A stretch of 64,000 nt of DNA. Origin: Psammoneis japonica (lineage: Eukaryota). Positions 7,885 to 29,480 of this stretch are shown here, one piece after another. The notes under the pieces are model-generated. The model worked only from the letters and a program-made list of their open reading frames with translations, did not search any database and was not told where the DNA came from. The position numbers were made by a program, and so were the translations under genes. Location: assembly GCA_008632985.1 (NCBI GenBank), contig QPGO01000090.1, positions 62,001 to 126,000 on the forward strand, read 5' to 3'. Numbering within the stretch: the first letter of the stretch is position 1; each line of letters begins with the position of its first letter.

Positions 7885-8330
7885 GACAACCAAGAGGCAA
7901 GTCTAAATGCGTTTCGTCCAGACAGGAACGACGTCAGAATCGTGGATGTTCGCCACCTTTCTCCTTTATTTGTCTTCACATTCGAGAGAAGATGAACGCA
8001 TGGTGCCACCTCGGTGCAAGCACGGATTGCAGAGTCGCCAATGAGGGATTGCAGCTCTATCTGAAAAAGCAATGCCTGTTACGCACGTGTCTGCAAAATT
8101 CTAGAGGGTGTAGCAAATTTGTTGTTTTGTGGAGTGAGTCCCACCGTACACTAAATCAAAGAAAAAAGACGACTTGGAAGATCTTTCCCGAAAGTGATGC
8201 AAAAGATCGTAATCTTATATCATGTGATACTTAAAAACCCAGCCTTTGCTACTCGCTTTACACAAGACGATACTGATGTTCGTCGCACCGAATCGGCCTT
8301 ATCAATGTCATCAATATCCGCAGGTGCGAC

Positions 8331-9684
8331 TCAAAATTTCTTGATCAGCTCGTTGATCTTGTCTTGATCTTTCCGCCAAGTCGCCAAGTTTCCACACTGC
8401 TTCTTGGGCTCCTTCCAGTCGTTCAGCTGGCACTCTCTGGAGCAATAGCAAACGACCTTGCATCTCCCGCACTTCTTCAGATCCTTGGGTGGCTTGAAGC
8501 ATGACAAATTGTTGCAACACTGAAAGCTCACGTCACCGCTGTACTCATACTCTCCGGGCTGCGCAAAGCCTCCAAACCGATTGTTGAAACCCTTGTCCAA
8601 ACCTTCTACAAGATCATCTTTGATAGCCCGATAAATCTCTAAACGCTCCTGGTACTTGTTAGGGGTGCTGAGGTGGAAGCCGCTCTCCACACATTTCTTC
8701 TCAAATTCAATGACAAAGTGTCCATGCCCCTTGCCGAAATGTACTTCTTCATCACACAAAGCAAAGATAAGCCTCTGATCTTCAGCTGCTCGGCTGCTAT
8801 CCCACTCAGAATCGTACGGCTCCCGAATCTGTTTCACCACACGTTTCGCTTCACGAATCCTAGCATGTTGGGTCTTGTCTGCGTACGTGATGGGTTCGAT
8901 AGAGCCCATCTGAATAGCGCTTTCTTCTCGAGTGATATGGATGTCGCGAACTGTCACGAAAAACATCGTGAGCGCTTCCGCCCATTTGATGTAATCATAA
9001 GAGTTCCAGCAAAAATTAATTTGGCTCATGCGGGGATGTTCCGCAAACGCGGCATCACACAAGAGTCTCCAACGGAAGCCGTAATTCTTCTCGTCCTCTG
9101 TCAGCGGACGGATAGGACTACGCCGGTCTTCTGAGCACGGTCCACCTCCGAACAATCCCAAGAAGAGTTTGATTTCTTTACCAAAGTCTAATTCTTTTTC
9201 TGGCACGATGAAATCTTCATTGTTGCCCGAGTGCTTTTTTCCAACTTCTTCATTCGCCTTCGAGAAACTTCCTCCAGTAACGCTAGTTGATCCATTTCCT
9301 CTTTAGTTCGCATAAGGCTTTGTGATTCATCAGGAGGGTTCTTTATGTAATACTCTTCTATTAGATCTTCTCCGACATCGCGATCATAAATGTCGTCCAT
9401 TTCGATCTCAAGCTCAGTTGAAATATAGCGCACGACACCCAGATACGCCGCATAATGTTCAGTTGTATTAGGAGGAAGTGGCTCATCTGGGCACAGCAGG
9501 CCAACAGCCACCTGTGACACCAAGAAAATTCTCTGCTGGGACTGAGCCTCACAAATAGTGGCAGGTCCTCGGGAGTGTCATCGCAGGAGGCTTCGGCAGC
9601 ATCGGAGTAATGACAGCATCCCGCGGCAAAGAGACGTGCTGCGGCCCCTGTCAGTTTGGCGGGAAAGCGTTTGTTCCTCGCCAT
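8331..9684 (-). pseudogene. MYND zinc-finger protein gene with two apparent 1-bp frameshifts (pseudogene or assembly error)
   Basis: C-terminal C..C...KKCGRCKVVCYCSRECQLNDWKEPKKQC MYND motif. Three overlapping ORFs (9684-9361, 9523-9188, 9206-8331) join through single-base shifts near 9525 and at the T6 run near 9235. Confidence 0.75.
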
Positions 9685-12600
9685 TGCTCGTTGGATTCTC
9701 GTAGAATGGGCAGAAGCGTCGCAGCTCAGAATCTACAGCTCGGCTCGGGGCTGTTCGTCACGCTGAATACTGAATACACTATCAACCATGCAATGAACAG
9801 AGAACAAACAACTTGTAAACTTGTTTAGTAGTCAGGTGAGGATTTTGCGGGGTGTGGCGCTGTTGACAATAAGCCCCCCCGCCAGTTTCAGCAATGCTGC
9901 TGTCTGTCTGTATTCAAGCACCTGCGACACGGCCCCCACCCAGTCCCCCTTGTGCAAAAAAATCCGTTGATGCGACAACAGCCGTCGCGCCATAATTTTT
10001 TCACTTCATCGATGGTTTTCCTTTCAACAAGAGCGTTGGTCAAGAGAAGCCTCCTGCGTGTTGTCGTTGTCATACCTGCACTCGAAGCAATGCTTGTAAA
10101 GATGGTCAAGTCCTTCACACGACTTAAGAAGTTGAAGCAAAGCACATCTCAAAGTCAGTGCCCCCCCTTTGAACAAGTGCGAAAGAGGAGGGTGTGATGC
10201 TGAATGATGTGCTGGAAAGCAAAAGGAAGTTGACAAAGCCAGTCGATTCAAATGGAGGTGTGATCAACTTAAGAAAAGCAAAAAAATCATGAAAGAATTA
10301 AAGCTTGAGTTGACTTAGATCAAAAACATGCAAATGGCACACATCAAAGGGCCAGGGCACAAGAAGAGGGGCTGCAACGAAACTCGCCACACGAGCCCAG
10401 ATGCTTCAAGGTGCAAGTCATCAGAGAAAGTTTGACTCAGGTTCTGAAAAAGGTTGAGCCAGATTTCCTTTTAGCACTGCCACAGGGCTGCAGAAACAAC
10501 CTTGTCAAGAAGAGTGCTTTGAGCAATTGCTTTTCTCTGCATCACACAAGAAGCATTTTTTGATGCTCCCGAGTCTTTGGCAGATTGCAGCACCTCCACA
10601 AGCAATCTCAACTCAGTTGGGGATGCCCCAGCATTGAGCCCAAGGATGCATTGAAGCCTGTGTTGTGTGAAAAAATGACTGAGTTGAGTGTGAAAAAGAA
10701 AAACAAATGACCCCCACTGTCATGCTGATGTGGAGCACCAGCAGCAAAAAGAGCAACTTCTTGCTGCTGGACCACATTAAAGTGCCAACTCATCCAACTG
10801 TGGTGCCACAGGAGTTTGTTCATTCACAATGCCCTTGCATGCACCCAAACATCAACAGCACAGCAAACAGTTGGCGGTGGTGACCAATGTGCTTCTTGGT
10901 GTCATGGCCCTTCCCTCATGTGAGCACTGCATTTGCAACACCTCTGTCAGGTGGGGATGTGGATGAAACCTCTGACCCAGTGCACAGGTCTGCCCAAGGC
11001 TTCACTTTTCTTTGCTTGATGAGGTGGGAACTGAGCATGCACCTGGATCAGGTTGGAAGTGCTTTTCTTGCTCAGCGGCAGAGTTTTTGAGCACACAAGA
11101 GCTGAGCACAGCAGCACAAGATTTGCAAGCAGCACTGCACCTGTTTTCTCAGAATGAATGGTGACAGGAGGGTTGGGAGCATGGAATTGACACAAGTGCT
11201 CAAACTGCAGCAAGCTTGTGAAATTGTGCAATGGTTTGCTTCTGCGTGTTGTGTCAAAGGCTGTCAAACACCAACTTCCTGATGGGATCATTTGTGCAGT
11301 TCCGAGAAGCCATTTTTCTTTTTGCCTCACAAAGAGGTGAGCAGCAGTGACAGTGAACTGGCAGGTCACAGAGAGCCAGACAATGGAAAAGCCCTTTTCA
11401 TCAATCTTCCCAGTCAAAGCACAAGCTGCCTCAACACATTTCTGACTTTTCACAAGGGCAAGTTGTCCTTGGGTAAATTTCACAATCTGTTGGCCTGTTT
11501 TGGAGATGAGGGTTTGCAACAAACAATGCTTGTCAACAGTTTGAACCTCCATGGTGTGACACAACCTCAAGCAGCTAAAGCCCAAAGGATCGACAAAGTG
11601 AGGGACAGATGCAGTGGGGTGATGGACAAATGGGCCTTTGTTGAGGGGGGTGGGTGAAGAGAAGTGTGGTGTGTGTGTGACTCCAAGGTGCTGGACAGGG
11701 CGGCAGCTTGGTGGAGAGGGCATGGAGGAGCTTGTGGTTGAGTTTTGGGGCATGCCATGCAAGTGGTCTGCTGGAGACTTGGTGATGGCACAGCTGGTGC
11801 CACAATGGAGCGCAGTGTGCAAAAACTTGTTGTTGCTCCAAACTGCTGCATCAGATGGAAACATGCCTTGTGAGGAGCATTTCTTGTGAAAGAGAATGCA
11901 TCAAAGCAGGTGAGTGGGGGGAAGAGAAACTGAGTTCCAGGGTGGATGGGGGGGAAGCTTCTGCTGGCAACTTGCTGGAAGAAGAGCCAAATGAGAGTTG
12001 TTGGCAGCCAAAGCAGGCAACAATCAAGAGAGCCCAGGTGACAAACAGCAAGAACAGAGTGATGTGCTTTTTGTGGTTGAGGCAGCCAGAGTCACAGTGG
12101 GCCCATGTGCTTTTTTGCCGTTTCCCTGGAGCCCCCTCTTTGTGAGCACAGACAAGCCTCTGAAGGAGCTTGAGGAGGAGGAAAGAGCTTCCAAACAGTT
12201 GCATCAATGGCCATGCATGCACAGCAGAAGGGAAAAGCACATTGTGGCAAAAGTTTGAGCTGGGCACCTGGGCTCATCATGATCTTTGGGGCACTTTGCT
12301 GCTCTTTCTCACTGTGTGCTTTAGTCCAGCCATCAGGCATGCCATTGGCCAAGTCACAGCTGCAAAAATCTGAAAGGTGCAAGCGGCAAAGGACTCTAAA
12401 AATGGGAAAGGATCAAAAATGGAAGTGGGAGAAAAAAGTGCTTCTTCTGACAAGGTGCACAAAGCTCAGACCTTGTTTTCTTTGCACATGGTCCTTCTTC
12501 TTGGAAGCAACAGTGTCAGCAGCATTTGCCACTTTTGCTCCTCATGCCAGGCAGCCACAAGCAAATCTGTTTTGATGACAGCTCATTTGGATGTGATGAT

Positions 12601-13618
12601 TCCACCATGAATGTCAAGGAATGGAATCTCTCGAGCCCCAAATGACTCAAGAGACAGTGGTGGGGAGAAAAGAAGAACCCGCCAGCACCCTGCACCTTTG
12701 CGCTGGCATGTGATTTGAAGCAAATGAATCTGCACAGCCACAGCATCATAAAGAACACAGCTCATGCCAAGGCAACCACACAGTCTTTCACAAAGCAGGA
12801 GCATGTGATGGAGAGGAGCACCCAATGTCTGGAATGCAAAACAACAACTTGTGCATCTGAAGTGGACTGCATGCAATGTCGTCACTTGTTGAACAAGCTA
12901 CACTCCCAAGCTCCTTTGTTTTTGAGAAAGAACAAGAGCGCAGATGAGGCATGCTGAGAGTCTCGCTGTGTTGAACAGCAAAAGCAATGATCAAAAGAAG
13001 AAAGAAGAGATGGAAAGAGCTGTGGTGAGCCAATCATGCAGTGTGGGTGCAGGCAGAGAAAGGCAGTCCACAGAAGAATTGCACTCAAATTTGGAAAAAC
13101 TGGCAACAACAGTTTGGAGTTAGAGCACAAGTGCTGTTGTTCCAAGTCCTGCCTGCAGCCTTGTGATGCATGTTGTTTGATCTGGCATGTTTGCTCATTG
13201 CAAAGATTGTGGCACAGCAAGACATGGCAACTGTGGTGCAACAGAGAACACCAGGTCAAATGCAAAGGGTGTTAAGTTTGGCAGCAACAAGAAAAAAATG
13301 CAAGCAGAAAGGCAAAGGCAGGGGCAACAAGAAACCACAACTGGCACAAAAGTTGGTGAAAACACAAGTGCTGGCTGAGCTGTCAAGCAACAATGAAGAC
13401 AACAAGGAGGAAGAGGAACAATGCAAGAGTGCCACAAACCCACTGGAGGCTGCTGTTCAAATGACAACAACAGCATGTTGCAGAGCCAGCCCAGCCCAAG
13501 TGGTGCTTGCAACTGTCCTGGCACATGAAGCCAATCCTGGCCAGCAAACAACATCACAGCAACCAGCAAACAGGGCAGCAAAAAATTAGAGATGACTGGC
13601 TTCTGAGCACGTGGTGCA

Positions 13619-14100
13619 CCTTGTCACTCAGCAAATTCTGATTTTTGTCTCAGCAAAGGCAATGACAACATTTTCAACAGGAATCGTTCGAAAATGTCGT
13701 GTGGGTCATAATTGACATTTTGCACGAGGAAAACCACCACAAAATCGCGCAGAAATGTGCACAATGTCACGCGAGAGAGTGATCAGAGCTGATGACTTTT
13801 CGGGAACTGAGTTGAAATGCCATCTGATTGACGGCGTTGGCCTTCACCATGTGAATCAAAATGCCGTCAATCAGACAGCATTTCAATTGATTTCCTGAGA
13901 AATTGACACTCGTGTGCGGATGGATGGACAGACTGACGACAATTGTTTTTAGTGCTCTCCTGCACAATTTCTGCGTGGTGACTCTCAGGACCCGAATGAC
14001 TCCCATTGGCAAATCCACTGCCTGCAATCTAAAAAAAGGATCTTCAAAAGTTGTGATGACAAAATCAGCATTTTTGTTTGTCAGGCATTTGGTGACAAGG
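13619..14100. mobile_element. Fold-back MITE-like element, about 480 bp
   Basis: Ends CCTTGTCAC..GTGACAAGG with subterminal inverted match (CTGATTTT..GTC). Central hairpin about 13800-13900 (GTTGAAATGC.ATCTGATTGACGGC / GCCGTCAATCAGAC.GCATTTCAA). No clear TSD. Confidence 0.65.
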
Positions 14101-15567
14101 GACAGGGGGTTCCTTGAAGCACAAACATTTTTGTAAAAAAAAATTGTTGTTCACCACAGTTAAAAGAGCAAAGTTTTGAACAACCAGCCATCTTTGATGG
14201 CGCAAAAATTGCACCTGTGAAAGGGGAAATTTTGCCATGAGATGGGTGCCCTTTGAGGCAATGTGCCATCTGATGTGGCTTCCATTGAGAAAGTTGGCAG
14301 TCCAAAAAATTGCTCATGCTGCCCACCAGCCACCAGCTCAGGCTTGCTTTGAGCCTGATCCTCCAAAGGAAGCCTCCCACTGGCCAGCGCTTGCTGCTTA
14401 AGAAGACCAGGGGCAGGAGAGTGATGCGTGAACCACTTTTTGAGCATCATGTCAGCATGGGCCCAGACTTCTCAGGTGACTCTGAGGTGGATCTGTTGCC
14501 TCCAAAGATCCCAAAGCTGTCAGATGCCACCATGGCTGCTCTGTCATCAAGCACATCAGCAATGTTTCTCTTTGCTCACAGCCCAAGCTTTGAACCAAAT
14601 TTGCCCCCTGCAGCACTGAGCCCAACTTCTTGGAGTTGGTGCCTGCTGCTGCAAGATGTGCCAAGCTTTTTGTGCATTTTTCAGAGGAAGCATTGACAAA
14701 AGATTTTTCTGAGTGTTGCCAGCAAGAGAGAGCACCTCATTTCTTGTTGCTTTTCCCATTTTTTCAAAGAACAAGAGCAGCAGCAGCCAACCAGCAACTG
14801 ACAGCAGCCACGTGCACTGATTTGCAATTCTTCAAACATTGTGGCTGTGCTGTGCTGTGCTGTGCTGTGCCATCATGCTCTGCCACACAAGAACCCAGCT
14901 TCAAATGACAGAACAAGAAGGTGCTCATTGGGGACCTTGGATTGAAGTGGCAATGTGGACAAAGTGCTGGGTGCACAAGAGCAAACCTTGGAGATCTCAA
15001 GCACAGCTGAGGCATCCTTGAAAGTCTTGGCTTGGCTGTGGCACTCAATTGTTTCGGTGGTGTAAACAACTGCAATGGTTGGAGGGGCTTCAATGGGTGG
15101 AAGGGTCGTTTCACCTTGTCAAACTGGTGCACTGAGGATGTTCATGCATGGGTGACTGCTTTGGACCACACAACTGCTGGAACAGAGAGCAGCTGCTGAG
15201 GTGACACAGGGTGAAAAGGTGCAGGGAATGATGTGGCACAGTGCAAAAAGGTGCAGCGAACAATGTGGAGAGCTGCCGGCTGCAACCAGAATGGTGTGCC
15301 ACCAACACAGATGCTCTGTCAGCACCAGTGTCCTGCTCTTTGCAACATGCAAAAGGTGAGCTGATGACACTGTCAGCATCCTTTCCAGAGAAGCCGTGGT
15401 GTTTGTTTGTGGTTGTCCAAGTGCAAAATGAGCAAGCTTTCTTGAGCAAAAGATTTGGGCTGAACTCAATTTTCCATGAATTTTTGTGCTGTGCATTTGC
15501 AGTCAGGCAGCTCCAGTTGCACTGAGAAAGCTCTTCATGAAATCAAACCAGTGCATTCTTGTTAGCT

Positions 15568-15945
15568 TCAAACAGTTGCAGGCTGCTGAGTGACCAACAA
15601 TCTTGTCTTGTGCAACTCTGTGAGGATCTCAGGTGTCACATCATGTTCTAAATTGTTTGCAAGCAAGACAGGCAAGTCATCAAACAACCAATGCCAGCCA
15701 TTGGACCCATCGAGTGTGTCCATGACAGGTGTTGCTCCCATGTTCAGGGCTTCCCAAGTGCGGCAGCAATCATGTGCACAACCAGATGGGGACAGAATGA
15801 ACTTAGATTGTCTTGATTCTTCAAAGCAGTTGTCCTCAGCTCCCATCTTGCAAGCATTCTTGACACACAGACCATCAAACTTCTTCAACACAGACTTTGT
15901 GGTGCTCAACTGATTGTCAAGCTCTTGGCAGTTAATCAACCACAA
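15568..15945 (-). pseudogene. Exostosin/GT47-like glycosyltransferase C-terminal remnant
   Basis: SKFILSPSG..HDCCRTWEALNMGATPV...LFDDLPVLL matches the family pattern SKFxLSPxGxGxDCYRxWEALxxGxIPV..LPVL, with Tyr converted to Cys. Confidence 0.7.
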
Positions 15946-16398
15946 GAAGCTGTGCTCTGTTTGGAGACCAAGGCTGCTTCAAATGCCCCCATTCCTTGCT
16001 CCTGGTGGCAGAACATGCACTGCGCCATCTGTTTGCACAATGTGCACTTGCTCTTTGTCACAACAGCCACACTGCAACATTTGTCAAGCATGTCATGCTG
16101 CATCCCCCACCTGTTGTGAGTTTCAAAGAGGAGCCAAAGGTGCGCCACTGGGGGCAATGTTGACAAAATGGCCAACAACTGCTGAGCCTCTCTTGAAGGA
16201 TCAGATGAGTGCGGCACCACACTTGCACTGAAAAAGCAGGGGAAGAAGCTGGAGAGGAGCAGTGCCATGACCCAAGCAACCTTGAAGGGCATGACATGGG
16301 CCAGCTGGCTTTTGGAAAAAAGATGATGCAAAGGCTGCAAGGAGGGTTTGGAGATGATGGCATGTTTGCCATGAGATCCATCATTTGGCCACATTTAA

Positions 16399-16920
16399 CA
16401 CGGGATCCACGGATGCACCAGGGGAATCTGCGAAACGCGGGATGAAAGGGGAAAGGGGCAAATGTGAATGGTGGAAAAGTGACATGCTGCTGTTTTACCT
16501 GGAGGGACCCTTTGGTCAGCCAAACACGCTTGTTGCCGATTTGACCTCGCAGGTCGTCTTTTGAGGTCGTTAATTTGAGAGAGCAGACGCGGTCTCTAGA
16601 AACAATTTTGTGCATTTCATCAGACCATTGACATTGTGCAAATCTGAAAACGACACACATGAAAAAGTGAATTTTCAACTTTGTGTGACCTTCACAGCCG
16701 TGCACATTGTGCAACGATCAATCCTCAAGACGCGTCCCGTCACAACATTTTGACACCCCCCACAAGACGGACCTGTGATGGTCAGATGAGAAATGTGCGT
16801 GTGTTCGGCTCACTGAAGGGACCCTTGAGGCACAATGACAGCCCCTCACTTTCCCACCATTCCCATTTGCCCCTTTCCCCTTTCATCCCACAATTCCCGG
16901 GTGCACCCATGGATCCCATG
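16399..16920. mobile_element. TTAA-flanked MITE with long imperfect TIRs (piggyBac-like)
   Basis: TTAA|CACGGGATCCACGGATGCACC ... GGTGCACCCATGGATCCCATG|TTAA. Arms stay complementary for well over 100 bp (GGGATGAAAGGGGAAAGGGGCAAATG). Confidence 0.8.
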
Positions 16921-18215
16921 TTAAAGCTGCACATCTGGAGTGGTGGTCTTTGTGCAACTTTCCAGCACTGCAGTGGAGAGAGATTTTTCTCAGCAACTGA
17001 GCACATTGTCAAGACAGCTCAGCAAAACACTTTGCACAATGGCATTTTTGTGGCATCATTTTTCTTGTTTGTGCAAGGGATGTGATGCAGCAGTGAAAGG
17101 CAATGGAGAAGCATCTTAAGTTGCACAGAGCATGTGTGAGGTGTGTTTTCTGCCTTTGTTTTGTTGCAGCAAAGCATGATTGCAGTGAGCCTGGTGCTGC
17201 ACCACACGCATCCTGCACAGTGTGCATTTTCTCTGTGCAATTGTGCACTCCATGACTGCAGATCCCTGCACTGCATGCTGTGCATTGAGCCTGTCCCTGG
17301 GAGCAGAAACAAGCCAAGGACAAAGTTTTCAACTCATGCACCATGCGACATCTCAGAGTGGGGGGATGTGAGAGTGTGTGTGGTGGCTGGTGCTCACCAC
17401 AGACAGCTTGGACACCACATTTTGACATGCAAGCACAAACCCATCATGCAGGTTCCACTCGTGTGACTCTGTGTGACATGGTGCAACAATCTGCAAGATC
17501 CATCATCCCAGCTGGTTGAGCATGCAGCCAGAAATGAAAGACACAATGACTGCACAAGAGCAGGCCCTCTGCTCTTGCTGGCTGCAGCAGCCAGGCTGCA
17601 ACTGGAGCTGCACTCTGGAGTTTTTGAGCAGATTTCCAAGCAACTGGCACTGCACCTCCTCACCCAAGTTGAAGCTCATTTTTTGGAGGGAAAACAAAAA
17701 GTGCAAGGATTGTCATGTGTCAGGTTGCTCAACAACGATGCTCACAGCAGCTTCTTGAAAATCCTTGGCTTTTAGAGCTGCAACCTGTGCCCACCTTCCT
17801 CACCCACCTGTGAAGCTCCCTGAGTGCCAAGGTGCACAAACCCACCATGATGCCTGATGTCCAAAAAATTGCTTGCATCAAAACATGTGCATCAGCTGTT
17901 CTCGTGGACTCTTGCACTCACAATCAATGGATGCCAGCAGACCTGTGGGCAGAGCACTGCAATGCAAAATTCAACATCCAATGAAAAGGGAGCCCAAATC
18001 ATGGGCAGAAAGATGAAAAATGTGTGTGGCGGTGTCAACAGCATTTAAAATTTGATGGAAAAGAACAGCGTCACAATGTTGCCCATGGCAAGGGTGGGTT
18101 GTTGGGGGCTGCAGTGTGAGAATGCAGCTCATGGGAATGGTGTCTGAACAAAGCTGTGTGCAGTGGATGAGGTGTGTTTTGCCAGCTCAAAAAGACATGT
18201 TCATCAACTCACATG

Positions 18216-18427
18216 NNNNNNNNNNNNNNNNNNNNNNNNNNNNNNNNNNNNNNNNNNNNNNNNNNNNNNNNNNNNNNNNNNNNNNNNNNNNNNNNNNNNN
18301 NNNNNNNNNNNNNNNNNNNNNNNNNNNNNNNNNNNNNNNNNNNNNNNNNNNNNNNNNNNNNNNNNNNNNNNNNNNNNNNNNNNNNNNNNNNNNNNNNNNN
18401 NNNNNNNNNNNNNNNNNNNNNNNNNNN
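18216..18427. other. Assembly gap (N run)
   Basis: 212 N. Confidence 1.
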
Positions 18428-18579
18428 GGGAAGATGGCCAGACAAAAAGGGGTGTGTGAAAGATTGTCCTGTCCAAGCCACACACAATTGAGTGTCTGCC
18501 TCCTGCTGCCCTCTGAAACATTCCAATGAAGTCATGCAAACTGCAGTGTGAGAAATCAATTCATGGGAACAACATCAGC

Positions 18580-19660
18580 CTGCAGTTGACTGTGGAGCAC
18601 AGTGATGCCTGCATTGGTTTTGATGCTCAAAAGAAGAAGAAGAAGAAGAAGCACACAAAAAGTGACCACAAAGATGGCCAGGACATGGTGGTGAACAACA
18701 TCAATGAGTGGCCTCAACTCTTGCTTTTCAGGCAAAGTTGTTTCTCCTCAAGACTCTCTGCTGTCTTCTGTTTCATGATGTGCAATCTGCACTCCCAACA
18801 TGATGCAATGGCCTCACAGCCAGCAACTTCCCGGAGCTTGCAAAGTGCAAAAGCCCTCCACATTCTTTGCCCTTCACAGCTTCACACACTCATTGGTGCA
18901 AAATTTCCCACATGCAATGTGGAGGAAGTCAATGAGTTGTGCCTGTTTCAAGACAAAATGCATCAAGAGCTTGTCTTTTGAACCCAAAAATGGACACATG
19001 CTCAAGGGTGTTGTTTTGGAAGCCCCTCTGGGTTTGCCTGTTTGCTTCCCACTGTTGCACCAAGGACTCCACTGTCCTGGTTCATGCCCTCTTTCAGACA
19101 TTTCATGGCACATTTCAGGCCAGCTCCTTGCTGTGAGATTTGGAAGTGGGTGGGTTGGCAGCATTTGAGAATGGGGACTTTTGGAGTTGTGGCTGCAATC
19201 CTGTCACTCTGTGAGCTCTGTTGCTCCACGACATGCAACAAGAGCTTTTCCCAAGAATGGCACACTGAGTTCAAATGGAAAAGGCAGCTTGGCAGATTTT
19301 TCCTGAATTTTGTGCAAAGCATTGGTGATCTCACATCATGTGATGTGCACAAAGCCCGCCTTTTGCTTTGATGCTCCATCTGAAAAAAGACGCTGACACT
19401 GGCTGCACCAAATTGGCTGCATCAGCATCCACAGGCATGACTCAAATTTTTTTGTCAGCTCATCAACCTTGGCTTGGACTTTCTGCCAAGTTGCCAAGTT
19501 TTTCTGTGCTGCTTCTTGCGCTCCTTGTTCCAGCCCTTCAGCTGGCCCTCTCTGGAGCACCGTCAAACAACCTTGCATCTCACACACTTCTTCAGATCCT
19601 TTGGCAAAGATGAGAAGCATGGAAAGTTGCTGCAATTTTGAAAGCTCACATTGCTGCTGC
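18580..19660. pseudogene. Hypermutated paralogous copy of 6510-8550 (F-box-like 5' part and MYND 3' end), lacking about 7170-8145
   Basis: Collinear matches such as GACTGTGGAGCACAGTGATGCC vs GACTGCGGAGCACAGTGATACC, and CCTTGCATCTCACACACTTCTTCAGATCC vs CCTTGCATCTCCCGCACTTCTTCAGATCC. Confidence 0.85.
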
Positions 19661-20584
19661 GCTCAAGCCAGTGCCATGGACAGCAAACACCTTTTCACCA
19701 CCGCCAGCTCTCTTGAGCAAGAGGACAAGGGGAGGCACTTGTGGTCTTGCGGCATCCTCTCATGCTGGCGCTGGTGCTCCTCCTGGCAGCGGGTGAGCTC
19801 CTCCTCCTCCTCCTTGTCCTCCACCCTCATTGCAGCACACACACACAAAAGCCAGGGGAAAAAGATGCACAAAGCTGTTTTCTTGTTGCAGAGCCGGCTC
19901 CAGTGAGAGTGGAAAACTTGTTGTGGCTGCTGTGAGTGGGGAGGAGCAGCAGCACTCATTTGTCTTCTCAGTGAGTTTGGCTCTTGTCAAAGAGCAAAGC
20001 ATTTTCCAGTGGGCAATGGGTGCAGATGGGTTGGTTGGAGGAAGTTTTGAAATGAAGAGGGGTGCAGGGGGCTTTGAAATGGAAGGGAAAAGGGGGTTGT
20101 CCAACGCACAATGCGATCTTGTTGACAGCAGGTCACGTGTTTCTTGGAAGAGGATTCTCGTTGCTGCTTTTTTTTTTGACAATCAGCAGTGCTCCAGCAG
20201 AGATTGTGGCTGCTGTGGACTGAGTGATGCAACTGCAGTTTCCAGCCAGAGGCCCCACATCATCATGTCATTTTGTTCATTTGCGCTCGATTGCACGCAC
20301 CTCAGGCACCTGGCTGGAGTCGTCAACTCCTCGTGCGCGTCAGTGGACGCATCACAACTTGAAGTTTGTCATGAACCCTCGACAGCTTCAGCCGACGCAG
20401 AACATCTTTCGTGGATTCTTTTGAACAAAAAGAAGAAACCAAGCACACAACGCATGTGCGAGCATTGCCGGCATCGCCGCTGCTGTCACCAAGCTGAGAT
20501 GACCGATGCCAAGCACAAGGCCGCTGTTGATTGTGCCCGCAAGGACGTTGAGGGGATGTTTGAGAACTCAAATCTGCAAGATGA

Positions 20585-23411
20585 GGCACGTTCCCACCCT
20601 GACAATTTCGGCCGTAAAACAAACACAATTTCGTTCTACACAAAATTGCTGTAGAAACTCTCGTACAAGAAAAATCGCACGTCTGTTTTCCATCCGCCAA
20701 TTTAGGCACGTTCCCACCCCGATAATTTCGGCCGTAAAATAAATGTAATTTCGTTCTACACAAAATTCCTGTAGAAACTCTCGTACAAGAAAAATCGCAC
20801 GTCTGTTTTCCATCCGCCAATTTACAGCCGAAATTATCAGCAAATTACGACGACAGGTGTCGGTCGTCGTAAATTCTCTCCCGTAAATATAATTTTCACG
20901 GTAAATTCGGCGTTTTGGGAGCTCGAACGTGCCACGTCACACAAGCCGCCCATTTTTTTCTTTCTCCGCTCCGCCCGATCGCACAACAACCATGATGGCT
21001 GCTGCCATGAACGGACCCGTTCATACACGAACGACCGTCCTGTCTACGAAGGTAAGAATGTAGAGACAGGTCAATAAGACTACGCTCGATACGATCAAGC
21101 TGTCACAATTTTGATTTTTCGTTGTTGTTATGGCTTATGACGACCGTGTCGACTAATGGTATTTTTGATGTCTTCGTTTCTCTTGTTCAGATTTCGCGTT
21201 GGGATTCTTCACAAACCATACGTCTACAGACTTGAGGCCGAATCCTCGTAGCAATATATTATGATCTGATGTTACATTGAGGTGGTTCTTTGGTGTGTGC
21301 TCAAGGTTACTTGATTGACGGTCAAGAGTCAAGAATGCAATATTTTGGTCACTTCAACAACAACAGGAAGGCTTGTTGTGATAGAATATGACTATGAAGA
21401 AGGCTGTGTGCACTTATTTCATCAATCTTGTCGGAAGTTAGGACAATGATGCCGGTGGGGGTCAATGTTTTGCGCAACATCGTCGGCATTGTGCCTCACA
21501 GTGCCTTACTCTACTGTCTGGAGGCCTTCTCTGCGACTTGCTCTTTGTTACTTTGCTCTTTGAAATGGATTTAGGCCAATGGTGAACTGCAAGAGTTGAC
21601 AATGGTGCCTTTTAGTACCTCACATTCTGTAGAAATTACATTTAGTAGTTTTACATGCTGTAGTCTCACTGCATGCCATTGTTTCGTGCGTCTTTCTGAT
21701 CTCTCTGCAACTCTTGCTAGTGGATTGAATGTTGGATATATTTCTTCTGACCTTCACTGGTGTTATCCTGAGTCTTGGGTTACCGTAGAGCAATCGCAAA
21801 ATGGACAACGATTGTCGCTGACAATGTTGTGGTGTCTCTCTAGCTAGCAGCTCTAGCCAGTGCTGTAGTAGCAGTGTAAACAGTGCTGTGGCGTGTAGCG
21901 TCCTCACCGAGCTCGACATGAGATTTTGATCTTTTTTACCGATCGAATTCGTTCCCAGCCTGACGCCCGTAAATACGTAAATTTGGCCAAATTATATTTA
22001 TTTTACGGCCGAAATTGTCAGGGTGGGAACGTGCCTTACAGCCGAAGTTGTCAGCAAATTACGACGACAGGTGTCGGTCGTCGTAAATTCTCTCCCGTAA
22101 ATATAATTTTCACGGTAAATTCGGCGTTTTGGGAGCTCGAACGTGCCACGTCACAAGTTCCCCATTTTCTTTCTCCGCGCCGATGTTCGCACAACAACCA
22201 TGATGGCTGCTGCCACAAACGGACACGTTCGTGCACGAACGACTGTCCTGTCTACGAAGGCAAGAAGGTGGAGACAGGTCAACAAGACTGCGCTTGACAC
22301 GATCAAGTTGTCAGAATTTTGATTTTGCGTTGTTGTTGCAGCCTGTGACGACCGTGTCGACTGACGGCATTTTTGATGTCTTCGTTTCTCTTGTTCAGAT
22401 TTCGCCTTGGGATTCTTCACATGCCACATGTCGATCGACTTGATGCCAAAACGAAATGGAAACACATGGTTTGATGTTGCGGCGACGCGGCTCTTTGATG
22501 TGTGTTCCGGGTTGTCCACTTCTGGGGCTTCGATTTGATTGAGGGTCAAGACCACACAAGGTTTGGGCATCGACGAAAAGAAGGCTCATGCTCCGTTGTA
22601 ATCGAACATGGTGGTGAACAAGGCCACGCGCACTTTTTTCATTGCTCTTGTCACAAGTTGGCACAACAAGACTGGCGGGGGTCAACTTTTTGCACAGCAG
22701 CTTCGGCAACGTGCCGTGCAGCACCTCGCTCTGTTGTTTGTTCTGTTTTCGTGATGCACCCAGATCACTTTGAAGCCATGGGGTTTGATCTTACATTTGC
22801 ATCAGTGTTTTTGCAATTGCATTGGAGTTTCAATGCTTGGTCTCGCCCTGCATCCTGTGACTCGGGGCTTCTCTGCTCGGTTGCCCCGCCGGTGCGGCGC
22901 ACAAAGTTTCTTTTTGCTCCGGGCTTTCCCATCGCCACTGCATTGCCCTGACCTTTGTCCAATGGAATTGCAGCAAAGGAGCGCCGTTGGACAACGTCGC
23001 GGTTGCCTTTTAGAAGCTGGGATGAAGTGCAACTTACACTGTGGCAGTGCTCCTGTCAACGTGACTGCGTGCCGCTGCAAAAAGAAAACACATTCGTCGT
23101 GCTTTTCTCTCTGCACTTTCACTTGACAGTGGATTGGATGCTTTTCTTCTGATCTTCACCAGTGCAATCATGAGTCTCAAGTGTGGGGCAATCGCAAAAT
23201 GGACAACGACTGTCACTGACAAGGTTCGTGCGTTCGATGCCTGTCCCACCAGTGGAGCTGTTAGCAGCAGCGTTCTCACCGAGCTCGAGATGTGATTTTG
23301 ATCTTTTTCATGTACGGTTCGAATTCATTCCCAGCCTGACGCCCGTAAACACGTAAATTTGGCCAAATTGTGTTTATTTTACGGGCGAAATTATCAGGGT
23401 GGGAACGTGCC
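20585..23411. mobile_element. PIF/Harbinger-type non-autonomous element (outer copy, about 1.49 kb of own sequence)
   Basis: TIR GGCACGTTCCCACCC.GA.AATTTCG..CGTAAAA at both ends. 3-bp TSD is TGA on the left (mutated) and TAA on the right. Confidence 0.88.
20705..22035. mobile_element. PIF/Harbinger-type non-autonomous element (inner copy nested in a relative)
   Basis: Same TIRs with a perfect TTA TSD (20702-20704, 22036-22038). The outer element resumes at CAGCCGAA after it. Confidence 0.92.
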
Positions 23412-24994
23412 TAAGTCTGACGAATTCCCGAAATTTACCAAGCAAGAGCTCAAACTCGGAAAGATCCTTGGCAAGGATGGCGTTTTCACCGTAAACGAGG
23501 TACGCGCCTTTTTGGTGGGAGGGGTCAAACAGGAAAAAACCAAAAGGGGCAAGGAGGATGAGCAAGTGACGGATGGTGAGAGGGAAGGTCGCGATTTCAT
23601 TGCGAAACACTGCCTTCGTACGGTGGCAATGCACGTTCTTATGCTGTCAAGTACCTTGCAAAGGACAGGATCGGAGACGACCTGGGTTTGTACATTCAGG
23701 TCATCAAGGACCTAGCTATCGAAACGCGTTTCTTATCAAGCATTGTACATCCTAACATTATCAAGTTGAGAGCCACGTCGAATCTAGATCGCTTTGAAAA
23801 AGATTACTTCATCGTGATGGATAAGCTTTATGATACCTTGGACAAGCGTCTTGCCAAGTGGCAAAAGATCAACAAGGGAACCCAAGGCTTGGTTGGAAAG
23901 CTTGCACATCGAAACGGGAAAAAGGCGATCAAACTCATGCAGGATCGACTTGTTGCTGCTTTTGACCTCAGTGCCGCAATCGAGCATCTACACGAGCACA
24001 GGTGATGTATCTGAGAATTGAGTGCCTTCACATTCTGCTGCCCGCTACTAGCTAGTAGCCCCCTCTAACCTGCTTCTTATTCCACCTATTATATTTGACT
24101 GCGCAGAATAATTTACCGTGACATTAAGCCAGAAAACGTCGGTTTTGATGTGAGAGGCGACATTAAGGTTTTCGATTTTGGCCTTGCCAAAGAGATTCAT
24201 CCTGAAATGAGGGTGAGAACAGCGACACATACAAGTTGACGGGTTACACCGGTTCCATTCGATACATGGCTCCTGAGGTAGCCCTCTGCAAGCCTTACAA
24301 TTTTGTGGTGGATACCTACAGCTTCTCTATTCTGCTATGGGAAATTTTGGCCTTGGAAAAACCTTTTGCTGCATACTTGATGTCGAGCTTTGCTACCAAG
24401 GTGCACAATGGAGGAAAGAGGCCCTTCATCAAGGAGGAGTGGCCTGTGCCCATCAAGAATCTCCTCGCAAATGGTTGGTCAGAGGACATTTCGGAACGTC
24501 CTCAAATGGGGGATGTTACCCAGATTCTCAAGAGTGAACTTGTCCGTGTGCATTTCGGTGAAGACACGGGACAACTTGAACACGAACGCAGGCGCTCAAC
24601 CTTTGTCTTTGAAAAGGGACAGTGAGTATCCTTTTCTGAACGCTTTCTAACTGCATTTCAGAGTTTTGTGTATGTACACCCCTATTCCTAGGAGAAAAGC
24701 CTTTCGAATCAATCACTGCGGCTTGGTTTACACATCGAGGGTGCTACACGACTTCAGCCAAGTAGATGGGTTTCCTTTGCATTTTTTCAATCCGTTATAT
24801 TTTCACATGTACGTGTACTCCAAATCCATGTTAGTTACAAAAGTAACCGAGATTTCTTCTCTTTCTATTTATGTATCTTTGCATGCCTATTGCTTCTCTG
24901 CAAAAGTCTTTCAAAACACACAGTCGCTTGGTTTGTATTACGATAGCGAGCGACACACTCTTTGTCTCTTACCACAACAAAAGACTTGTGTTAC

Positions 24995-25867
24995 TCAAAA
25001 CAACTTGGGAAGCAACATTCCGGTCTGTTTCTTCCACTCGTTGTATTCTGGATACCGCGACAGAGACTTTTCCTTGGTTGGTATGGTAACGAGGCAGGAA
25101 ACCGTCACAAGATACGCAATGGGGACCCACGAAAGGGGTTTCTTGTACCCCGCCACGACAATCATGGCCAACCACATTAGATATTCACCCAAATAGCTTG
25201 GATGACGGATCCGTGAGAAGAATCCTTCCGTAATGAGACCAGAACCGGCGTATTTTAACGTGAAGAACTTTTGTGCATCCGCCGCATAATGAAAGAATCC
25301 GCCAATGACAAACAGAAAGGATGATAGAAAGGTCTCGTACACGGTCAGGGGTTCTTCGTTCTTGACGGCAAGGTAGGGGTACAAAAAGTACAACGACACA
25401 AAGGCAGCACCCGTCAAGACGAAACCCAATCCACCTTGATTATCAGGTGCATTGTAAAATTGCTTGTCCCAAAAGATGTACGACTTGATCACCCAAAGCA
25501 CACCGTATCCCCCAAACATGCCAGCCATGAGACCGGCACGTGGTGTGTACGAATCAAAAGCCACCATGAGACCGAGGGCTAACGGAAGCCAAACCGCCTT
25601 GTGAAATTCAAGCATGCGTCCTACAGAGTATTTTCCATGAGGCAGCACGGCCTTGCCCATGGGGTCTTGTTTAAGACGACGACCAAACGCACCACCGCGA
25701 GGCACCAGTGTCACACGAACCGATGATGATTCTTTTTCTCCATGGAGTGAAAATGATGCCAATTGAGAGAGCGGCTGTGTTGGAGACATTCGGGCTGCCA
25801 CAGAATCATGAATGCAATAAAATGTCAGCAGCGCCACGATGGACGAAAGGAATGGATGACTCCTCAT
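24995..25867 (-). CDS. DUF1295 / steroid 5-alpha-reductase-like membrane protein with signal peptide
   Basis: ADAQKFFTLK..GLITEGFFSRIRHPSYLGEYL, KEKSLSRYPEY..WKKQT and several hydrophobic segments. Likely start MRSHPFLSSIVALL. Confidence 0.85.
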   Translation of the reverse strand: MRSHPFLSSIVALLTFYCIHDSVAARMSPTQPLSQLASFSLHGEKESSSVRVTLVPRGGAFGRRLKQDPMGKAVLPHGKYSVGRMLEFHKAVWLPLALGLMVAFDSYTPRAGLMAGMFGGYGVLWVIKSYIFWDKQFYNAPDNQGGLGFVLTGAAFVSLYFLYPYLAVKNEEPLTVYETFLSSFLFVIGGFFHYAADAQKFFTLKYAGSGLITEGFFSRIRHPSYLGEYLMWLAMIVVAGYKKPLSWVPIAYLVTVSCLVTIPTKEKSLSRYPEYNEWKKQTGMLLPKLF

Positions 25868-26049
25868 GGTTTCCACGCAGTTCGATTGTTGTGTGTTGTG
25901 TGTCACTGTGTCACGCTTTCGAAAAGAGGAGAAGATCGCAAAGTCAAAAGATTCAAGATCGGAGCGAGATCGGACATCGGGTGTGCGCATGCATAGCTAT
26001 GCTCGCGTTCGTTTGTGTGCAGATGATGAACGGATGAATAACAGACGAA

Positions 26050-29000
26050 CGAAGTGTCAGTTGAATGAACGAACAATGACATGTGTGTGATTGTGTGGTG
26101 TAATCGGAGACACTGCTTCTTTCCACTCGGCAAAAATGTTCATCACCTCTTCCTTGATTTGTGTTGCCATTTTGATTGACATCTCCCTTCCTGAACTGCA
26201 TTGGTTGCTCTGACCATTCTTCGCCCGCTTTGGATGGGAGAGGGCCAACCGGTGAACCAATCCTAAGATCTCAAAGAGGTGTGTTCTTCATGGCAAGTCA
26301 TTTGGACATTTTGTGCATGACAGTTCAACAAATGACAAATCAGGTTGCTGCTGACATGTCCTTGAGTGCCACATGCACTTTTCTTTTTTTGTTGTCGTTT
26401 TTGAACGCACCGGGAGTGACAAAGTTTGTCACAACATCATCATTTGCCCATGTGCCAAACAGCTTTTGGTTTGTTGCTGCAATTGCACTGTTTGTTGGGA
26501 TGCATTTGCAGATGGAAGAAGCCCTCAAAGACTGCAACAAAGGCTTGTTGCTGCAACCAACTTGTTTCAAGGCCCAGCTTTGTCGTTTCTCCATCTGCCT
26601 GCTGCAAACAACAATTGGAGAAACATGACTGCACACTTGAGGATGCTCTGATGGTCGTCAGAAAGCCAGGTTAGTCTGAACTCAAAAATTCAACCACTTC
26701 CTGATTGGAACAACTGAGCAAGGAACAGTTTGAGAAACTCTGGCAGGAAACAACAATGGGGCAGCTCAAGGATCTTGGCAACTCTGTTTTGGGCAACTTT
26801 GAGCTCTCTCTTTTTGGGATCTTTGTCCCAACACCAGATCCTGCAGCACATCATTCAATCAAAATGACAAGTGGAGCCAGGTGTTTAAATCAAAGCTCAT
26901 TTCAATCCATGTGTTCTTTTGAGTGGGTGGATGGCATGGATGTCAAAGCAAAGGATTGCAAAGAGAGTCTCTTCTGTGATTCATGCAAGCCACCCAACAG
27001 AAAATGCAACAGCCTCTTTCTCAGGAATGCCACATCACTCCAGAGCACACCACCATTTCTGGAGTGTAAAAACACAAAGAGTCACTCTTTTTGTGAGACC
27101 CAGTCACTGCCAGAGTGGGTCACTTGAATCTTGCAGTTGTTGAACAAGTGTCAGAACGTTGGCTGTGTGGTGCAATTGGAGGCACTGCTTCTTTCCACTT
27201 GGTTGAAATGTTTGTCCCCTGTTCCTCAATCTGTGTCACCACTTTGATTGAAGGACCAACAGGTGAACTGACATGCAATCTCAAAGAGTGGAAACTGTGC
27301 AATGTTCATGGTCAGTCAATCAGAGATGTCTTGTGTGACAGTTCAACAAAAGACAAATCAGGTCTCTGTCTGCACATTCTTGAGTGCCATGTGCAACTTG
27401 GTTTTTTGCAGCGCCATTTTCAAATGCACTGGAGCAAGAAAGTTTGTTGTGGCATCATTCAATGACAAAGACATTGCAAAATCAATCAATGTGGGAATGC
27501 CATCATCATGTTCTTGGTCAATGTTGACTTGCACTTTGAGCTCTTGTCCTTGTTGAGGCCATGCTTTGTGCTTGACTCCATCATCATTGTCATCATCAGC
27601 AGTGTTCTCAGGCAAAATGCAAAAAATGCAGGCTGTCCTTTCCAAAATGGCTCTGACACCACCCTCCAGCCACTCTGCAAATTTCAAGCTCTGTTCTTGT
27701 TGCACTGAATTGGTGGGGCAAGAGAAAAGGGCAAACAGGAGTCAGTCTTTTTCAGGAGACAAACTTGCCAGTCCAGTGAATGGGGGGAGTGCCACACAGC
27801 CCAAAGATCTTGAAAACTGACAACCAACAGCAAAATTCAGGTGTCATGTGAGCTTGCCACAAAGGAGGTCAAAGCATGCCAAACAAAGATGGCTGAGGGA
27901 GCTGAGTTCCAGGGTGGGGTTAGAGAGGGAGCAGGTGCTGTTGAGAATCAGCAGCTGAGGCTGCTTCTGCTGCTGAGCAAGCCCACCACAAGGTGACCAG
28001 CAGCAAAGCAGAGCAACTTGGGCCAATCTGTGTGGCAGCTGAGAAGTGGTGAGCAGCCTCAGCAGGTTTGTGAGCTGTTTTGTTGCTGCCTTGAACCTTT
28101 CTCTCTTTGTGCTCAAATTGTCACTGTGCACCCCTGCAAGTGAGTTAACACATGCATCCCAAAAGCAAGTGGGAAAGAAAAGAGGGGCTCAGAGCAGCTG
28201 CACCATGATGCACAATCTCAGAGGGGGGGGGGGGGGGGGCAGGTGAGGCAGCAAACAGGCCCAGTGCAGGTTTGAGTTGGATGCATGCATCTGCAGGGTG
28301 CTGCAATTTCTTGCCTGGCACCAGCAGGTGTCAGAAGCTGTGTGCAGCAAAGGTCATGGAAGACAAAAAGATGAGCTTGTGGTGGCTGGAAGTGCCTCAA
28401 AGCAGGCACCATGTGAGTGCCAGATGAGCTGGTTGAGGCCAATGGGAAAGAGAAGGGTTCAAGCAGTGTCGGGGAAGGCTTGAGCCAGGTGCAATGCTGG
28501 CACAACAGAGAAATGTGTCCACTGAGCCAGCTCAAAAAAAAACTGACAAATCTGGTGAATGTCACCAGAAAGGTGGTGCACAGCAATGCTGGGTGTCAAC
28601 ATGTTTTTTGTGTGTGCCAACTTCACTCTTGTCAGCCATCTCTCTTTGCCTTTTGGCTGCGACTTTTTTGTGGCAACTTTTCCAACATTTCCAACAAAGC
28701 ATTGGCTGCTTGTAAGCTGCTTTTTGAAAGTGGGCTTTCATCAGTGATGATGGTGACAACGCAGAGGAAAAGAGCAGTTGTGGTGAGAAGTTCCTGATGA
28801 AGCAACCACCACAGCCATTAACACACACATGGACAAAGATGGAAAAAGCTGGCACATGCCAAGTGCAGAAGAGCTGTGCACTCAAAAAGATGGAAAGTTC
28901 CAGTGGTGACAGTTTGGAGATGGGCTGCAAGCATTGCAGGTTAAAAATTCACCCACAGTCAAATGAAACATTTGCTCTGTCTGAAAATTGTTGAGATGGT

Positions 29001-29480
29001 CATCAGCTTTGTGAGTTGTTTTGTGAACCTTTTTGTGGGGTGGTTCTACCTGGGTCATCAGGGTGCCCACTCCTGCCTCAGTGTGATTGCAACCAAGGTT
29101 GGATCTTGTGCGAGAAGAATCTTGCATGGATGCAAACCATCTTGACAAATGTCTTGGGAACTGCAGTGCACTTTGCAATGAAAGGCAGCCAAAATTGGCA
29201 AAAAAGATGTTCGAACTGTGGCAACAGACCAATGTGTTTATCGTGTTTTAGCCTGAACCCTTTCAGGGAACATTTGTGCTGGTTGTGTGGAAGGACGTGG
29301 CACTGTTTCGAATGCAGAAGAGAAGACACAAGCTTGGCTGGAATATCAAGAAGTGACCTCCTTACAGATTGCAATGTTGGTTGTCAATCATGGATGTGTG
29401 GGAAAGGGAAATGCAACGGAAAATTGAGCAGAGAAGAAGAAATGGCGTGTCCAGACTGCCGTTGCATTCGCTGAAGAAGA
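26050..29480. pseudogene. Hypermutated block 2: decayed gene(s) with an internal duplication (26090-26430 ~ 27160-27460) and a Cys-rich 3' remnant ending at 29474
   Basis: TA and CG depleted. Duplicated segment CACTGCTTCTTTCCACT...GACAGTTCAACAAA.GACAAATCAGG. CxxC clusters in ORF 29016-29474. No TE motif recognised. Confidence 0.55.

Follow-up and report, generated by a model that had tools for sequence, protein, structure and literature searches.

We analyzed a 64,000-nucleotide stretch of Psammoneis japonica DNA (contig QPGO01000090.1 of assembly GCA_008632985.1, positions 62,001 to 126,000 of the forward strand), which is referred to in its whole length as the window and is numbered from its own first base. 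The window is eukaryote-like DNA with a G+C content of ~0.48 and a single N gap (18216-18427), in which gene islands of normal dinucleotide composition alternate with five blocks, together about half of the 64 kb, that have been almost emptied of the dinucleotides TA and CG. The subject of this study is a duplicated fragment of host genes that samples both kinds of DNA, with one copy (copy A, from 6471 on) lying in a gene island and the other (copy B, from 18541 on) lying inside the first of the erased blocks. An original prediction, made from the sequence of this DNA, had singled out the pair as a natural control, in which one copy of a duplication is erased and the other is untouched.

Erased blocks and gene islands

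Blocks were detected from TA and CG counts in 254 scored windows of 500 bp, of which 131 have lost both dinucleotides, 29 have lost TA only and 94 are normal, with none having lost CG only (0/254). These counts define the following blocks, the edges of which are sharp to within a few hundred bases:

10251-20614: erased block 1, TA and CG lost, with the N gap (18216-18427) inside
26001-29400: erased block 2
35900-50000: erased block 3
53001-59250: erased block 4, with weaker CG loss at 53-55 kb
60501-64000: erased block 5, continuing beyond the end of the window

Within individual blocks the ratio of observed to expected counts is 0.03-0.1 for TA and 0.03-0.25 for CG, and TG and CA are nearly doubled. 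For the pooled erased DNA (30.8 kb, G+C 0.481) the observed/expected ratios are 0.044 for TA, 0.128 for CG, 1.83 for TG and 1.89 for CA, the corresponding values for the pooled normal DNA (19.9 kb, G+C 0.470) being 0.57, 0.98, 1.14 and 1.16. Expressed as sites, 30.8 kb at gene-island density would be expected to hold ~1,230 TA and 1,660 CG, and 92 and 228 were found. The longest run without a single TA measures 2568 bp (18047-20614) and ends with block 1, at the right end of which CG is back from ~19.5 kb and TA only past 20614. An open frame of 285 codons (19797-20654, + strand), with no Pfam match, spans this TA-free right rim of block 1, just past copy B.

The edges of block 1 could be compared with contigs from one public sample (here X1, at least 95% likeness, covering 6001-26000), which represent a second haplotype or strain. 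One X1 contig bridges the left edge of the block (9843-10851), and 20581 is joined to 23412 in X1; the block edges are therefore not assembly joins.

The gene islands carry genes with long open frames, which according to Pfam comprise a glycerol-3-phosphate dehydrogenase, a dienelactone hydrolase, a MYND-family gene, a DUF1295 gene, an ALKBH1-like 2OG oxygenase, a HAD hydrolase and a ZIP transporter. Island DNA outside open reading frames (ORFs) retains TA and CG as well (TpA/ApT 0.76, CpG/GpC 0.93), so that coding selection is not what protects the islands; the suggestion that purifying selection by itself does not explain the protection of the first copy is upheld by the same observation. 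The ALKBH1-like gene, encoding a 2OG-Fe(II) nucleic-acid dioxygenase (29486-30751, - strand; Pfam E 3e-33, atlas score 0.97), adjoins the right edge of block 2, and the position of such a base-modifying enzyme beside a block is probably a coincidence.

Fate of TA and CG in copy B and in transposon relics

The duplicated fragment consists of two collinear parts, interrupted in copy A by DNA found in that copy only:

6471 to ~7175, + strand: copy A part 1, intact, with an F-box-like ORF (6480-6821) inside (blastn, flank alignments)
7176-8155: ~980 bp found in copy A only, an indel between the two paralogous parts (blastn, flank alignments)
8156 to ~8570, - strand: copy A part 2, comprising the final ~79 codons of the MYND-family gene and its 3' flank (blastn, tblastn, protein outgroups)
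8334-9684, - strand: full-length MYND-family gene, the functional gene from which copy B part 2 derives (Pfam, nine relatives, tblastn, alignment)
18541 to ~19266, + strand: copy B part 1, erased (blastn, MAFFT alignment, fate table, flank alignments)
19271 to ~19691, - strand: copy B part 2, an erased pseudogene of the MYND C-terminus (tblastn, protein outgroups)

Comparison of 18428-20500 with the window by blastn aligned 18541-19202 with 6471-7109 (66.6%, 673 columns, E 6e-59) and, in a second collinear match, 19271-19665 with 8156-8547 (70.1%, 405 columns, E 1e-46). The paralogy that had been proposed is thereby borne out, its limits having been drawn ~40 bp short at each end. The limits used here were set by tblastn and by flank alignments with shuffled controls, which gave no clear extension to the left of 18541 or to the right of 19691 (scores of 20.0 and 29.5, shuffle maxima of 26 and 29), or into the extra 980 bp of copy A, where a score of 27.5 versus 26 for the shuffle merely shifts the break to ~7175/19266. 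The F-box match of the ORF in part 1 (E 0.045) is short of the Pfam cut-off.

In the MAFFT alignment of the two copies, 717 columns are identical, 188 show a transition, 106 a transversion and 66 a gap, and all four of the word pairs quoted in the original prediction, including GTTATGG>GTTGTGG, are found in it. Read from copy A to copy B, the transitions divide into 46 A>G and 53 T>C (99 together) and 50 C>T and 39 G>A (89 together). When the fate of each dinucleotide is followed through ungapped adjacent columns, none of the 47 CG of copy A is kept in copy B, where 22 read CA, 16 read TG and 9 have another outcome; none of the 31 TA is kept either (10 CA, 9 TG, 3 CG, 9 other). CA or TG is the outcome at 57 of these 78 sites, close to the predicted rule that nearly every TA or CG of the intact copy is now TG or CA, and of 915 sites at which copy A has one of the other 14 dinucleotides, 540 are unchanged (Fisher p = 5e-29 for the difference). 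By total count, copy B has 0 TA and 7 CG in 1151 bp, and copy A, as had been noticed, keeps both (41 TA and 53 CG in 1121 bp). The changes fell on both strands, and CA<>TG double transitions occupy 17 of the 115 aligned CA/TG steps, versus 4.0 expected from independent transitions (p = 5e-7).

The erasure extends far beyond the duplication, being 10.3 kb long (~10.25-20.6 kb) around the 1.15-kb copy B. Comparison of the window with itself revealed no second copy of the remainder of block 1 outside copy B, and the blocks as a group are single-copy inside the window, except for copy B and a few short repeats. The idea that targeting depends on a chromatin domain and not on pairing is consequently sustained in one part, in that, within the window, erasure follows the block and not the limits of the duplication; that such a block corresponds to a chromatin domain may reasonably be supposed.

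The direction of change was read from nine database relatives of the MYND-family protein (39-55% identical, with PF24324 and zf-MYND), with proteins instead of DNA paralogues serving as outgroups. In tblastn searches these relatives aligned along 9684-8334 (- strand) in copy A, and with the last ~79 codons alone in copy B. There are 28 columns at which at least 7 of the 9 outgroups agree, and A and B both match the outgroups at 18 of these, A alone at 8, B alone at 0 and neither at 2. Because the outgroup proteins side with A at 8 columns and with B at none, copy B is the derived state. The derived status of the erased copy had been part of the original prediction, which named outgroups with an ancestral TG/CA as the contrary result; this was looked for with the protein outgroups and not found. 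Codon changes from A to B include TAT>CGG at an invariant Tyr, CGG>CAG at a conserved Arg and TGT>CAC at an invariant Cys, and part 2 of copy B contains one stop and has lost three zinc ligands. The further remark that the first copy also looks broken is only weakly true: the MYND-family gene is full length by comparison with its nine relatives, but codon 299 of the frame 8331-9302 encodes Pro (CCC) in place of a nearly invariant zinc-binding His (9/9 relatives; Arg, CGC, in copy B), and, as judged from this alignment, the functional copy may have a changed final zinc site.

Independent evidence comes from relics within block 3, recognized in a Pfam scan of 270 stop-to-stop frames of at least 75 aa (148 + 122) from all of the blocks and in the comparison of the window with itself:

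36097-36460, + strand: copy 1 of a direct repeat resembling a long terminal repeat (LTR), with TG..CA ends, erased (self-comparison, pair alignment)
42482-42846, + strand: copy 2 of the same LTR-like repeat, erased (self-comparison, pair alignment)
47059-48336, + strand: decayed Ty3/gypsy-type pol, with RVT_1, then RT_RNaseH, then Integrase_H2C2 on one strand (Pfam, HMMER)

RT_RNaseH (47611-48057; 27.2 bits, curated cut-off 24.8) and Integrase_H2C2 (48094-48336; 38.6 bits, curated cut-off 25.5) were matched above their cut-offs, and RVT_1 (47059-47373), just upstream of RT_RNaseH on the same strand, was matched under its cut-off (E 2.7e-4). Going by these profile matches, the order of domains is that of the pol of a Ty3/gypsy-type LTR retrotransposon. 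Pfam gave no match for 263 of the 270 block frames, and four more sub-threshold hits resemble noise; a PDB sequence search with the RNase H and reverse transcriptase relics returned 0 hits. When the RNase H relic was used as the query of an exhaustive HMMER search, 74 relatives were obtained, and 32 of these, which cover most of query residues 21-100, made up the outgroup alignment, the other 42 being left out. At four columns with a Tyr majority the relic has Cys (TGC) three times and Leu once, and at six columns with an Arg majority it has Gln three times and His once (all CAN), Ser once and Arg (AGA) once. The relic provides a second, independent polarization, in which codons with TA or CG became codons with TG or CA. 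All three of the Tyr losses to Cys are TA>TG, and all four losses of CGN Arg are CG>CA, so that the sense-strand purine changed each time; the counts are too few for a claim of strand bias, and the A/B pair shows none.

The LTR-like repeat has a length of 364 bp, and its two copies, at a distance of 6.4 kb from each other, have diverged by 55 transitions and 22 transversions. TG in one copy faces CA in the other at 13 of 67 aligned TG/CA steps, versus 1.56 expected from independent transitions (p = 4e-9), and smaller repeat pairs behave similarly, with 5 of 35 discordant TG/CA steps in the pair 53148/56405 and 9 of 29 in the pair 26287/27305. Such an excess of TG:CA mismatches is to be expected if each copy resolved its ancestral TA or CG on its own, and erasure therefore took place in situ, after duplication, in both of the LTR-like copies. 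We found no third copy of this repeat in the window, and its flanking 5-mers are without a clear target-site duplication. Elsewhere in block 3, an island that retains CG contains a self-reverse-complementary stretch (40852-40988), which may be a small inverted-repeat element like the one at 16397-16923 that is described below.

Separability, sequence context and age of the losses

TA loss is separable from CG loss, as is apparent from TA-only rims at 7 of the 9 block edges and from a repeat pair next to block 1. These features are listed here together with the CG-rich islands within block 1:

13675-14008: second CG-rich island in block 1 (X1 joint 13674>14009; pile-up of X1 contigs with a summed depth of 1083)
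16397-16923: element of 527 bp with ~21-bp inverted ends and TTAA on either side, absent from X1 (joint 16396>16924), self-reverse-complementary at 16421-16907
20582-23411: repeated element of 2.8 kb, absent from one X1 contig, with units at 20822-21520 and 22036-22740 (self-comparison, X1 contigs)
49751-51500: TA-only zone, CG kept, at the right rim of block 3 (dinucleotide counts)

The two units of the 2.8-kb element serve as another control pair, in which the second unit is erased for TA alone. Of the 34 TA in the unit at 20822-21520, 12 are TG, 8 are CA and 8 are kept in the unit at 22036-22740, and 30 of the 43 CG are kept, the total number of CG being higher in the second unit (52 vs 43). 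The TA-only zone at the rim of block 3 holds an open frame of 519 codons without Tyr (49862-51421, - strand), for which Pfam gave sub-threshold hits only and for which no relatives were found among 8000 scored candidates. A frame of this length is still unlikely to arise by chance, even with TGA as the sole possible stop, and the frame may represent a gene, living or lately inactivated, that passed through TA erasure.

Survival was calculated for each sequence context as the density of TA or CG in the blocks relative to the gene islands. For TA it depends on the tetranucleotide, being 0.54 in TTAA, 0.27 in CTAA/TTAG, 0.04-0.07 in CTAG, GTAA, ATAA and CTAC, and 0 in ATAT, ATAC, ATAG and GTAC (0 found, ~390 expected), so that 79 of the 92 TA remaining in the blocks sit in TTA or TAA. 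For CG it is flat (0.03-0.19), with its top between G/C neighbors (0.19 in GCGC, 0.18 in CCGG, 0.03 in TCGA). A flat pattern of CG survival is what spontaneous deamination of 5-methylcytosine would be expected to give. The CG pattern found here fits context-dependent deamination of 5-methylcytosine (PMC5054122, as far as the available part of that article goes), and we favor for the TA pattern an enzyme with a tetranucleotide preference, which it fits better. Because TA-only zones exist and the context rules of TA and CG differ, we favor two processes acting on the same blocks, with the TA process being faster or reaching further.

The CG-rich islands of block 1 bear on the age of the erasure. 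The element at 16397-16923 is a polymorphic, piggyBac-like insertion (TTAA target), forming an island that is CG-rich and TA-poor; TTAA being the TA context that survives best, elements that insert at TTAA may go on finding targets inside TA-free blocks. The summed X1 depth at the two islands is 415-1083, vs ~55 elsewhere, and about the same over the bins of copy B as over the gene island, a depth that is not a copy number in either case. Both islands are read as young insertions of repeated elements, in which TA is already scarce and CG is not yet.

Between X1 and the window there are 107 single-letter differences, 40 of which are listed, and it is among these 40 that the following events were counted. 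The normal DNA at 6.0-9.75 kb has 15 events, with no adjacent double transition, and the block DNA at 10.0-13.3 kb has 25 positions that make up 20 events, namely 4 CA<>TG flips, 3 sites with CG in the window and CA/TG in X1, 1 TA vs CA, 1 TG vs TA and 11 others. Flips between CA and TG are expected if TA and CG were resolved separately in each lineage, or if newly arising TA and CG were soon converted once more; on both accounts, the process was at work after the lineages of window and X1 had split, and the flips point, as an indirect hint, to recent activity.

No RNA sample was listed for the stretch. A further set of contigs (X2) covers 6001-7371, 7386-7599 and 8224-9770, including copy A and the MYND-family gene. 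One X2 contig omits 105 bp with GT..AG ends within 23998-24104, and the set appears to hold spliced, transcript-derived sequence, with an intron at that place. The stretch from 10.0 to 20.7 kb is without X2 contigs, which has no bearing on expression.

Possible processes and known systems

Copy B was probably erased by a region-targeted process that turns TpA and CpG into TpG and CpA in silent blocks, and that left the island of copy A untouched. Under this proposal, copy B would be a fragment of an old local duplication of the F-box-like ORF and the 3' end of the MYND-family gene, which would have come to lie in a block of silent, largely transposon-derived DNA. Within blocks, TpA and CpG on either strand would pass by transitions to TpG or CpA until nearly none remain. 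The first component would be a fast, sequence-specific TpA mutator as in Bigelowiella natans, sparing TTAA and in part TTAG/CTAA, its chemistry being either adenine deamination or the mispairing of a modified thymine, two routes that are indistinguishable here because TA is self-complementary. The second would be a slower decay of CpG, most simply by deamination of 5-methylcytosine in methylated silent DNA. Both components would follow a silent state of the chromatin, one that extends outward from transposons into adjacent DNA, copy B included. Targeting would then be by place or chromatin state and not by the pairing of repeats; nor would it be by the foreignness of the DNA, since a host-gene fragment is erased like its surroundings.

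Several points weigh against this reading. The silent chromatin that it invokes would be recognized solely by the scarcity of recognizable genes and by transposon relics, and one block alone has an identified transposon, with the 263 unmatched frames making up most of the 270. The search for copies spans the window, and further copies of B or of block DNA, together with a pairing-based trigger, are possible genome-wide. Copy B is old, because A and B differ at ~19% of sites outside pyrimidine-purine steps, and the timing of the erasure is not fixed by the pair. The gene islands stand in for the ancestral make-up of the blocks in the survival values, and the TA-only rims could reflect a younger age in place of a faster or wider TA process. 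Finally, the X1 comparison draws on the contigs of a single sample, with 40 of 107 differences listed and the alleles at each site unpolarized.

The original prediction had placed the pair in the frame of repeat-induced point mutation (RIP), with one partner protected. A duplication-triggered mutation of this kind, from which one partner escaped, could account for a dense load of transitions in one copy of a duplicated segment, and for an LTR-like pair that is mutated in both copies, but we consider it very unlikely. TA is removed here and not made, A:T>G:C changes equal C:G>T:A changes (99 vs 89), and the RIP indices are inverted, with TpA/ApT at 0.053 and (CpA+TpG)/(ApC+GpT) at 2.05 in the blocks and at 0.0 and 2.27 in copy B, the usual thresholds being ~0.89 and ~1.03. 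Moreover, copy B occupies only 1.15 kb of a 10.3-kb block, the rest of which is without a second copy in the window, and the X1 depth over its bins, though not a copy number, is about that of the gene island; one-partner protection also fails on the repeat pair with both copies in erased blocks, where both are erased. Selection against TA and CG in the blocks, through nuclease avoidance or chromatin structure, has about as little to recommend it. The depletion is extreme and sharply bounded, and the sparing of TTAA resembles the word-level rule of restriction avoidance, but the blocks hold dead genes and dead transposons with no visible function to select, the purging of ~2,900 sites in 30.8 kb one by one is implausible, and a TpA mutator has been directly measured in another alga, B. 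natans (10.64898/2026.01.13.699255, available part).

The reverse history, in which the TG/CA-rich state is ancestral, or belongs to foreign DNA that already lacked TA and CG on entry, with copy A as the one that acquired both, is the least credible of all and can be regarded as extremely improbable. The changes are all transitions, reversible on paper, and most block DNA is of unassigned origin; yet the outgroups agree with copy A at 8 columns and with copy B at 0, Tyr and Arg residues that RNase H conserves are replaced by Cys, Gln or His in the relic, erased repeat copies have an excess of TG:CA mismatches that requires an ancestor with TA or CG, and a host-gene fragment cannot be a foreign arrival. 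Somewhat more room must be given, although it too is unlikely, to a single system that erases TA and CG together, such as a deaminase acting on A and C, or a 5-methylpyrimidine oxidase acting on T in TpA and on 5-methylcytosine in CpG. It would account for the lack of any scored window with CG loss and no TA loss, TA and CG are both self-complementary pyrimidine-purine steps with the same two products, and enzymes of the ADAT2 type edit A and C in DNA, according to the available part of the B. natans preprint (10.64898/2026.01.13.699255). This is opposed by the TA-only zones and the TA-only erased repeat copy, by contexts that differ (tetranucleotide-dependent for TA, with the most A+T-rich word spared; flat for CG, with the top between G/C), and by the B. 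natans lines, which in the same source changed at TpA only. A bolder possibility, doubtful though not negligible, is a still-active, chromatin-guided mutator that by one pathway rewrites all TpA and CpG of silent DNA, foreign or host, and leaves TTAA nearly untouched; if true, it would be a heritable DNA-editing defense with a chemistry unlike both RIP and methylation decay, and would explain why TTAA-inserting elements find targets in TA-free blocks.

For the region-targeted erasure by two components, the nearest precedent is a bioRxiv preprint of 2026 by Mettrop et al. (10.64898/2026.01.13.699255), the available part of which describes regional TpA>TpG/CpA hypermutation in mutation-accumulation lines of B. 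natans. The rate is ~6e-7 per site per generation, ~1000x background, in an integrated giant-virus region and a virophage region, the 95-Mb genome contains 124 clusters that are poor in TpA and rich in CpA+TpG, and an ADAT2-like adenine deaminase is proposed. As in B. natans, TA is lost here and both TpG and CpA are produced (10 TA>CA and 9 TA>TG of 31 in the A/B pair), and the process is regional and, within the window, independent of repeats; the B. natans clusters are enriched in reverse transcriptase and endonuclease domains. Unlike the TpA-only changes reported there, CG is lost here too, in 131 of 254 scored windows, with TpA-only loss being confined to 29 windows and the pair 20822/22036; the preprint, in the part available, makes no mention of CpG, and its supplementary tables may list CpG or contexts. 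The active regions of B. natans retain TpA (3.3% and 9.2% of dinucleotides), in contrast to 0.044 of expectation in the blocks, which moreover fill about half of 64 kb, compared to 124 clusters in 95 Mb. A tetranucleotide rule is found here, with none reported in the same part of the preprint, which calls its targets foreign DNA, whereas the targets in the window include a Ty3/gypsy relic, young inverted-repeat elements and a host-gene fragment. The unbroken long ORFs of the window, set beside the intron-rich genes of B. natans, suggest that a different alga is at hand; a weak lead in this direction comes from the protein atlas, where the MYND clusters are commonest in Bacillariophyta, the ALKBH1-like gene giving no information on lineage.

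With RIP, the blocks share a transition-only mutagenesis that ruins repeated and mobile DNA together with the genes caught in it, and that leaves a dinucleotide signature behind. They differ from it in having TpA near zero, half of the changes in the direction A:T>G:C, an unchanged G+C content and an extent set by blocks. RIP itself, as in Neurospora and other fungi, changes C:G to T:A, mainly at CpA, and for this reason raises TpA; it requires a duplication and strikes both copies (PMC2621366, available part). The CpG decay caused by 5-methylcytosine in vertebrates, plants and some fungi resembles the CG component, in that 38 of 47 CG became TG or CA in the A/B pair and the loss is confined to silent, repeat-rich DNA, where methylation is putative in our case; it is likewise slower between G/C neighbors (PMC5054122, available part). 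Unlike the process seen here, such decay leaves TpA alone and normally lowers G+C. A parallel that is also drawn in the B. natans preprint (10.64898/2026.01.13.699255, available part) is that to ADAR enzymes, which prefer a 5' U and convert A>I on RNA, and to APOBEC enzymes, which convert C>U on cDNA, both being examples of neighbor-biased transition hypermutation against mobile elements. Their substrates are RNA or the replication intermediates of individual elements, and the changes that they make are strand-biased, whereas here contiguous chromosomal DNA of mixed origin is affected over 10-14 kb, with strands about equal (CG>CA 22 and TG 16; TA>CA 10 and TG 9).

Targeted genomic mutation as a defense is known mainly from fungal RIP, to which the TpA hypermutation of B. 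natans adds one alga, and the window resembles what such a process would leave in the long run, with blocks written without TA and CG. Our literature search for combined TA and CG erasure led to the B. natans preprint only, and no dinucleotide erasure in the literature searched was as complete as the end state described here. Four things are new in comparison with B. natans: CG is lost as well, erasure is close to saturation, survival follows a sequence-context rule, and a fragment of host genes is among the erased DNA. The window adds internal controls beyond those of the preprint, namely a host-gene pair with outgroups, an independently erased repeat pair and young insertions caught half-way, and its tetranucleotide rule is a constraint for any candidate enzyme. 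Location seems to decide, and host origin to give no protection, which bears on the death of genes beside transposons and on the variation of mutation rate along a chromosome. It also bears on gene prediction and repeat finding, because erased DNA has TGA as its sole stop codon and no Tyr codons.

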